Assembly (NCBI GenBank): GCA_038045945.1
Contig: JBBSXC010000004.1
Coordinates: 35,077-99,076, forward strand
Length of the DNA: 64,000 bases
Direction: 5' to 3'
Source: Nanobdellota archaeon
Lineage (GTDB): Archaea > Nanobdellota > Nanobdellia > Pacearchaeales > GW2011-AR1
Shown: positions 18,013 through 40,359 of the stretch, piece by piece
How positions within the stretch are numbered: the stretch's first letter is position 1
Layout of the letters: each line of letters opens with the position of its first letter
Program-made: the position numbers and the translations under genes
Notes under the pieces: generated by a model
The model's input: the letters and a program-made list of their open reading frames with translations, nothing else
What the model was told of the DNA's origin: nothing
Database searches by the model: none

Positions 18013-18228
18013 TTATTTTAGGTAGTAAGCACTTGATGCGAATTCTTTACCACACTTCTTACAGTTCCATATTCCAGCTGATCTTCTCTTAGCTGTTGGT
18101 GACTTGCAGAATGGGCATACTTGTTTTCTTCTTTGTTTGCTTTCAACATTAACAAAGTTATCTCTAACCTTTCTACCGTAACCTACGGCGAATTTTCCCG
18201 CATGCTTTACTCTCTTTGTGTGTGCCAT
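18013..18228 (-). CDS. rpl37ae: Ribosomal protein L37Ae (eL43)
   Basis: 71 aa, KFAVGYGRKVRD...CPFCKS...AGIWNCKKCGKEFASSAYY is the typical eL43 zinc ribbon. Confidence 0.85.
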   Translation of the reverse strand: MAHTKRVKHAGKFAVGYGRKVRDNFVNVESKQRRKQVCPFCKSPTAKRRSAGIWNCKKCGKEFASSAYYLK

Positions 18229-18337
18229 GATTAAATAGTTGTAATCTCTCTAGAAAAAGAGGGTTTTTAAACCATTTGCTTTTACTTCTCTAAAATAGTC
18301 TCGAAGAGATTATATACTTTCTGACCTTTATTTATTA

Positions 18338-19219
18338 ATGGTAAAATTATACTATTCTAGGCTCTCTAATGAAGAAAAGTCGACGATTAAACAATTAACA
18401 GAGGATGGTAAAAGTTTGAGAGAAATAGCAAAAATAATGAGTCTTGGGATAACCACTATTTATTATTATACTAGAAAATTTAAACCAAAAGTAAAAGAAC
18501 CATTTGTTAATAAACTAAAAGATTTTGAAGTAGGCGAGCTTATTGGAGCTTTTGCTGGGGATGGGAGCTTTATTCATCGCTTTAAGACTAATGGTGGTAG
18601 AAACTCTCAATACACAGTCAGATACCATCTTTCTTTAATAACTGATAAAGAATATGCTTCATATCTAAGCTCATTACTAGAGAAAATTAATTTAAACCCG
18701 ATGACATCATTTGTAGAAAAGTCGCATAGGCTAGATGTTACAATAAACTCAAAAGATTTCTATAATCTTGTTAAAGAGTACTTAACCTGGAAGGAGGATA
18801 AAACACTTAGCATAGAATTATCAAAACCAATCAATGAATATTATGATGATTTCTTAAGAGGTTTTGCTAGAGGGATTATGGACACTGACGGTTTTTTAAA
18901 TGATGCTAACGCTGGATGCGCATGTATTTCTGAAAGATTGATTGATAACCTAGCAGAAATATTTATGAAGTTTAATCTAAATATCTCAAGAAGTTGCATT
19001 CAAAGATCTGGAAATAGAAGACAAATATTTTATATCAGAGTTTTAAGAAAGAGTCTTGAGGATTATATCAGGGATATAGGTTTCTCTAATTTGCACAAAT
19101 CAAAAAAATTAGAATTCTTGATAAATAAAAATGGGGCTGCCCAGATTCGAACTGGGATCATGAAGTCCCAAACCTCAGATACTAACCAAGTTGTACTACA
19201 GCCCCATCTGAATAGTTGA
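18338..19219 (+). CDS. Free-standing HTH plus double-motif LAGLIDADG endonuclease-like protein
   Basis: N-terminal HTH (LTEDGKSLREIAKIMSLGITTIYYY). First LAGLIDADG motif LIGAFAGDGSF, second FLRGFARGIMDTDGFL. The open frame runs ~88 nt antisense through the tRNA-Pro gene, so the true C-terminus is uncertain. Confidence 0.55.
   Translation: MVKLYYSRLSNEEKSTIKQLTEDGKSLREIAKIMSLGITTIYYYTRKFKPKVKEPFVNKLKDFEVGELIGAFAGDGSFIHRFKTNGGRNSQYTVRYHLSLITDKEYASYLSSLLEKINLNPMTSFVEKSHRLDVTINSKDFYNLVKEYLTWKEDKTLSIELSKPINEYYDDFLRGFARGIMDTDGFLNDANAGCACISERLIDNLAEIFMKFNLNISRSCIQRSGNRRQIFYIRVLRKSLEDYIRDIGFSNLHKSKKLEFLINKNGAAQIRTGIMKSQTSDTNQVVLQPHLNS
19132..19205 (-). tRNA. tRNA-Pro (anticodon TGG)
   Basis: Manual fold: acceptor GGGGCTG/CAGCCCC, D stem GTAC/GTAT, anticodon stem TGAGG/CTTCA with loop TTTGGGA, T arm CCCAG-TTCGAAT-CTGGG, discriminator A. 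74 nt, CCA not encoded. Confidence 0.8.
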
Positions 19220-19269
19220 ATTTAGAAGCGTTTTTAATCCTTTTGTATAACAAACTCAGAAAATAAAAA

Positions 19270-39674: not shown

Positions 39675-40253
39675 ATGGAAGCAAGTAAAGACTTAGCATT
39701 ATTTTTAGGAATGTTATGCGGAGATGGATGGCTGTCACTTGTTACAAGAGGGGATGGTTATCATAATCACAAAGTATGCTTTTGCAATACAGATGTAGTC
39801 GTTATTAATAACTTTAAAGACTTATTTTTTAAAATATTTGGTGCTAAGATCAACACATATATCAGAAAAAGGCCCCTTAGAAAAAAGATTTTTGAGCTCT
39901 CCTCATATTCAAGAGAAGTTTTCAGTAAGATTAAGGAAATGGGCTTTCCTATTGGGGTTAAGCGGGATGTTCTAAGAATTCCCGAGATAGTAAGAAATGG
40001 TTCCAATCAGGAGAAGCTAACTTTTATTTTTGGCCTCTATTTAACTGATGGTTGTCTGAAGAAAGATAACTTTATTCATTTTCACTCTGGGAGTAAGTTA
40101 CTATTAGAAGATGTTTCTGAAATTGTGAACGAGTTATTCAAGGACAAAAGAGTAGTAAAATCTTACATACAACAACAGAAATATACCTCTTATCAATTAG
40201 GTTTAAATAAGGAAGAAACTCGAATGATATTATCGTGTGCCCACATCGCGTAA
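39675..40253 (+). CDS. Free-standing double-motif LAGLIDADG endonuclease-like protein
   Basis: First motif LALFLGMLCGDGWL, second FIFGLYLTDGCL. ~190 aa, the size of single-chain LAGLIDADG enzymes. The last 15 nt including the stop lie inside the 5' end of tRNA-Ser(TGA) on the same strand. Confidence 0.6.
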   Translation: MEASKDLALFLGMLCGDGWLSLVTRGDGYHNHKVCFCNTDVVVINNFKDLFFKIFGAKINTYIRKRPLRKKIFELSSYSREVFSKIKEMGFPIGVKRDVLRIPEIVRNGSNQEKLTFIFGLYLTDGCLKKDNFIHFHSGSKLLLEDVSEIVNELFKDKRVVKSYIQQQKYTSYQLGLNKEETRMILSCAHIA

Positions 40254-40319
40254 TGGTATCGCACTAGTCTTGAGAACTAGGCCAGAAATGGCATCCCCGT
40301 TCAATTCGGGGTGTGGGCG
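40239..40319 (+). tRNA. tRNA-Ser (anticodon TGA), type II
   Basis: Acceptor GCCCACA/TGTGGGC. Anticodon stem CTAGT/ACTAG with loop CTTGAGA. Variable-arm hairpin GCCAGAAATGGC. T arm CCCCG-TTCAATT-CGGGG. Discriminator G. 81 nt. Confidence 0.8.
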
Positions 40320-40359
40320 TTCCCAATCATTTATAAAATAACTTTCTTAACAACAATTT

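Follow-up and report, generated by a model that had tools for sequence, protein, structure and literature searches.

A free-standing LAGLIDADG gene with an N-terminal helix-turn-helix at the end of tRNA-Pro in a Nanobdellota archaeon, a likely homing endonuclease

The stretch of DNA analysed here, 64,000 nucleotides of a Nanobdellota archaeon (assembly GCA_038045945.1, contig JBBSXC010000004.1, positions 35,077 to 99,076 of the forward strand; hereafter the window), carries a gene for a LAGLIDADG endonuclease-like protein with a helix-turn-helix (HTH), the frame of which runs through a tRNA gene. The open reading frame (ORF) lies at 18338..19219(+) in the ORF listing of the window and comprises 293 amino acids. 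ARAGORN places tRNA-Pro(TGG) at 19131–19206(−), and the Rfam tRNA model matches 19132..19205(−) over its full length without an intron (57.5 bits; gathering score 29); the tRNA gene is therefore contained wholly within the ORF, on the opposite strand. On either side are the genes for ribosomal proteins L37Ae (18013..18228(−)), which forms the distal border of the insertion described below, and L11 (19270..20028(−)), the upstream neighbour of the tRNA. An earlier, sequence-only reading of the window had placed the gene between L37Ae and L11 and had its frame crossing a complete, intron-free tRNA-Pro(TGG) on the other strand, and these coordinates agree with it throughout. The ORF does not belong to an intron or intein, as the tRNA is intact and intron-less and does not include the conserved coding part, which is located beyond it on the opposite strand. 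According to the whole-genome tRNA list, this is the only gene with a TGG anticodon among the 41 tRNA genes of the 847-kb genome, which is that of a DPANN-type archaeon; the endonuclease gene is likewise single-copy, and tblastn against the genome returned only the query itself.

Pfam recognizes LAGLIDADG_3 (PF14528) in the ORF at 28.8 bits (cut-off 22.5; best stretch, residues 171–248) and HTH_38 at its N terminus at 27.7 bits (cut-off 27; residues 6–42), in line with the two LAGLIDADG motifs behind an HTH that had been reported; relatives score 48–52 bits against LAGLIDADG_3. The HTH is of the IS30-transposase/resolvase type, spans residues ~6–48 (18353..18481(+)) with helices at residues 11–22, 27–34 and 38–48 of an AlphaFold2 (AF2) model, and is also found in relatives associated with tRNA-Gly. 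This model is confident outside the tail (predicted local distance difference test (pLDDT), 87.7). When it was compared with the PDB by Foldseek, the best 29 matches were all to I-DmoI (E = 4 × 10−10, template modelling score of 0.76 on the target, ~192 columns, root-mean-square deviation of ~3.1 Å), followed by intein endonuclease domains and then, much more weakly, by WhiA (8dy9_I, E = 2 × 10−6). Both AF2 and Foldseek give the alpha-beta-beta-alpha-beta-beta-alpha double-domain fold.

The family alignment and the model define LAGLIDADG motif 1 (GELIGAFAGDGSF, residues 66–78, 18533..18571(+)), and the alignment and Pfam define motif 2 (FLRGFARGIMDTDGFL, residues 172–187, 18851..18898(+)). The putative catalytic residues D75 and D184 end the LAGLIDADG helices of the model (residues 62–75 and 170–184) and are unchanged in all 30 of the family members compared, over a range of ~30–100% identity, as are G66, E67, G70, F72 and G74 in the first motif and F172, F176, R178, G179, D182 and G185 in the second. 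LAGLIDADG enzymes make site-specific double-strand cuts in DNA that leave 4-nt 3′ overhangs, and the invariant pair of aspartates together with the fold predicts that the protein has the requirements of an active nuclease of this kind. As modelled, the endonuclease is of the I-DmoI type, a monomer with two domains, and carries an additional HTH at its N terminus.

A word-indexed search recovered 84 homologues, mostly of 261–271 amino acids, and a profile search of 1.84 billion cluster representatives from a library of ~15 billion public proteins recovered 123 clusters (50% identity) at E ≤ 1 × 10−30 and 579 at E ≤ 1 × 10−10. The conserved alignment ends at about residue 262 of the window ORF, that is, at the border of the tRNA; Pfam, the homologues, AF2 and Foldseek together delimit a conserved coding part of residues 1–264 (18338..19129(+)). 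Relatives end at about residues 262–270, with their frames stopping 18–79 nt inside the tRNA, so their tails are also antisense tRNA, differing in length and frame; complete read-through is peculiar to the window genome among the relatives compared. Its tail (19130..19219(+)), an antisense translation of tRNA-Pro, is unconserved and probably disordered, with a pLDDT of 47–51 from about residue 270. The last ~30 codons are thus unconstrained run-on, incidental rather than functional. For annotation, such a long antisense overlap with a tRNA is best read as harmless, and the true protein as having ~264 amino acids.

Comparison with relatives identifies the gene as an insertion. More than 20 endonuclease-free genomes from the same GTDB family keep the gene string SecE–Spt5–L11–tRNAPro(TGG)–L37Ae–prefoldin beta (pfdB)–p135, with only 11–52 nt between the tRNA and L37Ae, compared with 902–924 nt in carriers (the window, a same-genus relative and one metagenomic relative, with the endonuclease gene on the opposite strand). 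The compact empty site therefore defines an insertion of ~0.9 kb, and the ORF is present or absent at orthologous loci, as the idea of a mobile element had led one to expect. The L11–tRNAPro–L37Ae junction interrupts the usual L11–L1–L10–L12 string, and the sequence-only reading had blamed the element for this break; that part fails, because the same junction is kept in the endonuclease-free genomes and the break is therefore old. Within its own family (at least 24 genera sampled), an orthologue occurs only in the same-genus genome, at the identical place and with 62% identity, and a homologue at E ≤ 1 × 10−20 is present in 14 of 401 good genomes of the phylum (~3%). Decayed copies occur, with a stop (L056/L090), a frameshift (L059) or only part of the gene (L184).

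The link to tRNA genes extends across the family. Loci were drawn from GTDB genomes, a phylum sample and metagenomes, and in all 40 non-redundant loci with downstream DNA available a tRNA gene stands at the 3′ end of the ORF, which bears out the suspected linkage of relatives to tRNAs. ARAGORN or Rfam called this tRNA directly at 28 loci; at nine, ARAGORN did so after reference-guided in-silico removal of 1–4 introns, a procedure that leans towards the reference, and at three the tRNA is recognizable as exon pieces only. Rfam did not recognize the multi-intron tRNAs even at a permissive threshold. The partners are tRNA-Pro(TGG), tRNA-Gly(GCC/TCC/CCC) and tRNA-Asp(GTC).

Two layouts occur. In layout A, that of the window, ORF and tRNA converge and the ORF overlaps the 3′ end of the tRNA; in layout B, the two share a strand, and the ORF follows L11 and stops 15–38 nt before the tRNA, the TAA usually falling inside a TTAAAAAG box 24–30 nt upstream of the tRNA that is presumably the TATA box of the tRNA. 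In either layout, it is the 3′ end of the ORF that points towards the tRNA. In a maximum-likelihood tree, the tRNA-Pro clade is monophyletic (support of 100/99) and nested among tRNA-Gly(GCC/TCC/CCC) lineages, with one tRNA-Asp locus, and well-supported branches within the Pro clade force at least three switches between A and B. Two host clades, distinguished by the identities of Spt5, L11 and L37Ae, each hold lineages of both layouts. What is conserved is the position at a tRNA and not full read-through. An empty-site comparison in the tRNA-Gly(TCC) clade (L181 versus L182) revealed no clean insertion borders, the flanks being rearranged.

Short elements around the insertion suggest how it is accommodated. 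The TATA-like box ~35–45 nt upstream of L37Ae (18260..18278(−)) is identical at 16 of 19 positions to the TATA-like box ~25–35 nt upstream of tRNA-Pro (19227..19245(−)), forming direct repeat D1; the core GTTTTTAAWCC is confined to these two boxes within the window, and the two nearest carrier loci have homologous boxes ahead of L37Ae. The 11–52-nt gap of non-carriers is often too short for a promoter, and L37Ae is therefore probably co-transcribed there with tRNA-Pro. Judging by sequence, the inserted segment probably carries a replacement promoter for L37Ae. A T-run (TTTTTATTTATCAA on the tRNA strand, 19118..19131(−)) directly after the tRNA 3′ end is probably the terminator of the tRNA; it sits within the last conserved endonuclease codons (…INKN), and other convergent loci have T-rich runs at the matching place. 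Conversely, the complement of the TATA-like box of tRNA-Pro is a T5 run (19231–19235) that could terminate the endonuclease transcript. A ATTATATA box ~22–29 nt before the endonuclease ATG (18309..18316(+)) is probably the promoter of a leaderless mRNA. Apart from these elements, the non-carrier loci (L014–L036) suggest a tRNA–mRNA co-transcript freed by 3′-end processing, which would be an uncommon way of expressing a ribosomal protein.

The genome harbours three LAGLIDADG_3 genes, all of which end against a tRNA. Besides the gene studied here, one (39675..40253(+), 192 amino acids, 33.7 bits) reaches 16 nt into tRNA-Ser(TGA) (40238–40320) from its 5′ end, on the same strand; the other, which lies outside the window (243 amino acids, 54.7 bits; L103 1324–2115, contig C3 ~226349–227141 of the same genome), is in tandem with an intron-bearing tRNA-Ile(GAT) and shares 37 nt with its 5′ end. 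With 41 tRNAs in 847 kb, ~1% of genome positions are 100 nt or less from the edge of a tRNA, and to find all three genes there is far from a chance outcome. Twenty other free-standing LAGLIDADG_3 ORFs from the class show the same tendency: 12 or 13 abut tRNAs (for Ile, Thr, Ser, Phe, Ala, His, Tyr and Met), three are within rRNA genes and four are at neither. The gene abutting tRNA-Ser(TGA) resembles the one studied here in that the 3′ end of a LAGLIDADG_3 gene touches or enters a specific tRNA, whereas the studied gene belongs to a different sequence family, is fused to an HTH, is convergent at the 3′ side of its tRNA and comes from a family with documented Pro, Gly and Asp partners and repeated side switching.

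In another genome of the same family (G042; L021 677–1579), the gap between L11 and tRNA-Pro(TGG) is occupied by a different LAGLIDADG_3 gene (32.6 bits). Its open frame crosses the whole of tRNA-Pro(TGG) on the same strand and has no detectable similarity to the studied endonuclease. Two unrelated endonuclease families have therefore settled at one tRNA.

The existence of homing endonucleases is usually put down to the shelter that self-splicing introns or inteins give them, and free-standing ones are known mainly from phages. I-DmoI, I-Tsp061I and the endonuclease domain of PI-PfuI share with the window protein the fold, two LAGLIDADG helices ending in acidic residues and an archaeal host; however, they are encoded in bulge-helix-bulge introns of rRNA genes or in inteins and depend on splicing, whereas the window gene stands free in an intergenic spacer. 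It differs further from I-DmoI in its extra N-terminal HTH and its parking place at a tRNA, and the two proteins are only 12–14% identical. A parallel in life style, as summarized in the abstract of the report on it, is SegB of phage T4, a free-standing GIY-YIG endonuclease in a tRNA gene cluster, the 27-bp site of which includes the conserved T-arm motif of tRNA genes and which spreads without an intron by repair-mediated co-conversion of itself and its flanks (PMC2330249). On that summary, SegB and the window gene share the proposed way of life, free-standing beside tRNA genes, and differ in nuclease fold (GIY-YIG is unrelated), in setting (a phage compared with a cellular chromosome) and in that activity has been demonstrated for the former and is deduced for the latter. 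The abstract describes no overlap of ORF and tRNA of the kind seen in the window (PMC2330249).

On this evidence, we favour, as the probable explanation, a free-standing homing endonuclease that targets tRNA genes and rides along with them in the manner of SegB. The sequence-only proposal of a homing-endonuclease-like element, mobile or domesticated, for which tRNA loci serve as landing sites is thereby supported, with mobility deduced. In genomes without the cassette, the enzyme would recognize and cut the tRNA gene or its border, and repair from a cassette-bearing genome would copy the cassette in, a process that may be called intron-less homing. The closest possible placement to the conserved target would maximize co-conversion, and so close an abutment is in keeping with selection for linkage to the cut site. 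The HTH would probably add DNA contacts or serve autoregulation. Only with its 3′ end, and not with the end that carries the promoter, can a gene come to abut or enter a tRNA, which would explain both the constant polarity and the run-on tails. We speculate that, as the 7 bp of the acceptor stem present an identical sequence whichever end of the tRNA gene they are approached from, a half-site there could let one lineage take either end with the same polarity. The tRNA would keep its own promoter and have its terminator in the last endonuclease codons, and L37Ae apparently gains a new promoter-like box, so the insertion would be harmless without splicing.

Several points weigh against this explanation. 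Cleavage and target recognition are deduced from the protein, and mobility from distribution and anatomy. Distant hosts yielded no near-identical copies, and the closest homologue, at 61–62% identity, is from the same genus. The divergence of the endonuclease tracks that of flanking host genes (r ~ 0.7 with Spt5 and L11), and its G+C content at third codon positions (GC3) equals that of its neighbours. The gene is therefore a long-standing resident, inherited mostly vertically or moving between close kin only, and an intact frame with invariant catalytic residues then requires either that homing goes on among related populations or that the host benefits. A joint without the cassette was not seen in four groundwater metagenome runs, a result that is uninformative because it comes from assembler contigs only. 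The explanation also requires that the resident tRNA escape cutting by some means. The T-stem CCCGG/CCGGG of tRNA-Pro occurs in 0 of 12 carriers compared with 17 of 22 non-carriers, which is suggestive of target immunity; this difference is confounded by phylogeny, and we set it aside and do not use it as evidence.

Viral contigs yielded distant, partial matches only (29–46%), with no sign among them of a viral vector. A 12-nt inverted repeat at both borders of the ORF (I9) was judged to be due to chance in AT-rich DNA.

The gene might instead be an old, immobile resident: a former homing element that is now only inherited vertically and that either is kept because it holds the tRNA terminator in its last codons and sits next to the replacement L37Ae promoter or has simply not decayed yet. 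The divergence that parallels host genes, the matching GC3, the same-genus orthologue at the identical place and the contigs of the source metagenome, which hold no empty allele, all suit this account. However, the catalytic aspartates and ~25 further positions show no or almost no variation between clades at only ~30% identity, which needs selection on the protein, and a role as terminator and promoter would not keep an 800-nt reading frame. Nor does immobility sit well with the repeated changes of tRNA partner and side in the family, or with a presence in ~3% of genomes scattered over many families, which would require very many independent losses. We regard immobility as unlikely, although it has a modest chance of being correct.

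We give a small chance, too, to a domesticated host protein acting at tRNA genes, either as a WhiA-like regulator of tRNA-Pro and L37Ae or as a nuclease that shields tRNA genes from integrating elements. WhiA is a bacterial transcription factor derived from LAGLIDADG proteins, a conserved core gene of Gram-positive bacteria that has lost the catalytic residues and carries its HTH at the C terminus. The window protein shares with it two LAGLIDADG-like domains combined with an HTH, one homologue has a precomputed match to LAGLIDADG_WhiA (PF14527), and the fold match, although weak, is there; the long persistence in intact form and the constant location at a tRNA gene would also be expected of a host function. 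Against this, the HTH of the window protein is N-terminal and its catalytic aspartates are invariant, unlike those of WhiA, and a gene of such sporadic occurrence (14 of the 401 genomes of the phylum and one genus of the 24 or more sampled in its own family) does not serve a core function. Decayed copies also speak against domestication, and several unrelated LAGLIDADG families parked at different tRNAs suit selfish elements better than regulators.

Although tRNA 3′ ends are classical attachment sites of integrative elements and variable genes occur near tRNA-Pro in some relatives, we consider it very improbable that the gene is cargo of an integrase-type element attached at the 3′ end of tRNA-Pro, as the inserted segment is a single gene of ~0.9 kb without a recombinase between two ribosomal protein genes, relatives sit on the 5′ side of the tRNA as well, a repeat search found no att-like direct repeat of the tRNA end bracketing the locus, and no tRNA fragment is left at the far border, where local alignment of the spacer (18229–18345) with tRNA-Pro scored no better than shuffled controls.

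By fold and motifs, the window gene thus belongs to the LAGLIDADG superfamily, where I-DmoI comes nearest to it; its life style is of the SegB type, and it is neither encoded in an intron or intein nor WhiA-like. What is apparently new at this locus is an HTH-fused family that has switched both its tRNA partner and its side, together with a clean empty site and an apparent compensating promoter for L37Ae. A full-text literature search of incomplete coverage found no description of archaeal LAGLIDADG genes at the ends of tRNA genes. A cellular archaeal LAGLIDADG family, together with several unrelated ones, sits at the edges of tRNA genes and overlaps them; such families appear to switch partners and sides and to bring compensating promoter elements with them.

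More tentatively, and with the balance leaning against it, we propose that parking at tRNA ends is a general third harmless habitat for homing genes besides introns and inteins. The promoter, terminator and end-processing of the tRNA would replace splicing, either end could be colonized, and the resulting pressure may be one of those that push DPANN tRNAs towards multiple introns. It is a long-standing idea that introns in archaeal tRNA genes and split tRNA genes protect against mobile elements. If tRNA genes are indeed cut by the proteins described here, these would be a concrete selective agent with which to test this idea, and the fragmented, multi-intron tRNA genes of DPANN archaea may partly reflect pressure from such elements. 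The families would also be a set of natural meganucleases with tRNA-gene specificities, and would offer an explanation for local rearrangements around tRNA genes in reduced genomes.

Multi-intron tRNA genes do occur directly beside endonuclease genes, among them a two-intron tRNA-Gly and an apparently four-intron tRNA-Pro. At L056/L090 and L111, the adjacent tRNA-Pro(TGG) gives a normal cloverleaf only after the removal of four short insertions (~15–29 nt); these genes apparently have four introns, with exon boundaries taken from a reference-guided alignment. In most genomes of GTDB family f20 (L181–L210), carriers and non-carriers of the endonuclease gene alike, tRNA-Gly(TCC) is interrupted by one or two introns; one intron separates the 5′ strand of the T-stem from the T-loop (~position 53/54). 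We considered these introns as a shield of the neighbouring tRNA and rejected the idea for this family, as they occur in 3 of 3 carriers and in ~18 of 23 non-carriers, which is no detectable enrichment.

The surroundings of tRNA-Pro and the wider set of LAGLIDADG_3 genes yielded two further observations. Three of the free-standing-looking LAGLIDADG_3 ORFs (L176, L178 and L180; 198–257 amino acids) are flanked by 16S or 23S rRNA sequence, and so represent endonucleases encoded in rRNA introns of Nanoarchaeia genomes. Other, unrelated genes have been inserted in the gaps to either side of tRNA-Pro in some relatives (L012/L015 of genome G010, L018, L022 and L026), including methyltransferase-like, glycosyltransferase-like and phosphoesterase-like genes and others of unknown type; the borders of tRNA-Pro are a general hot spot of gene insertion in the ribosomal protein string.

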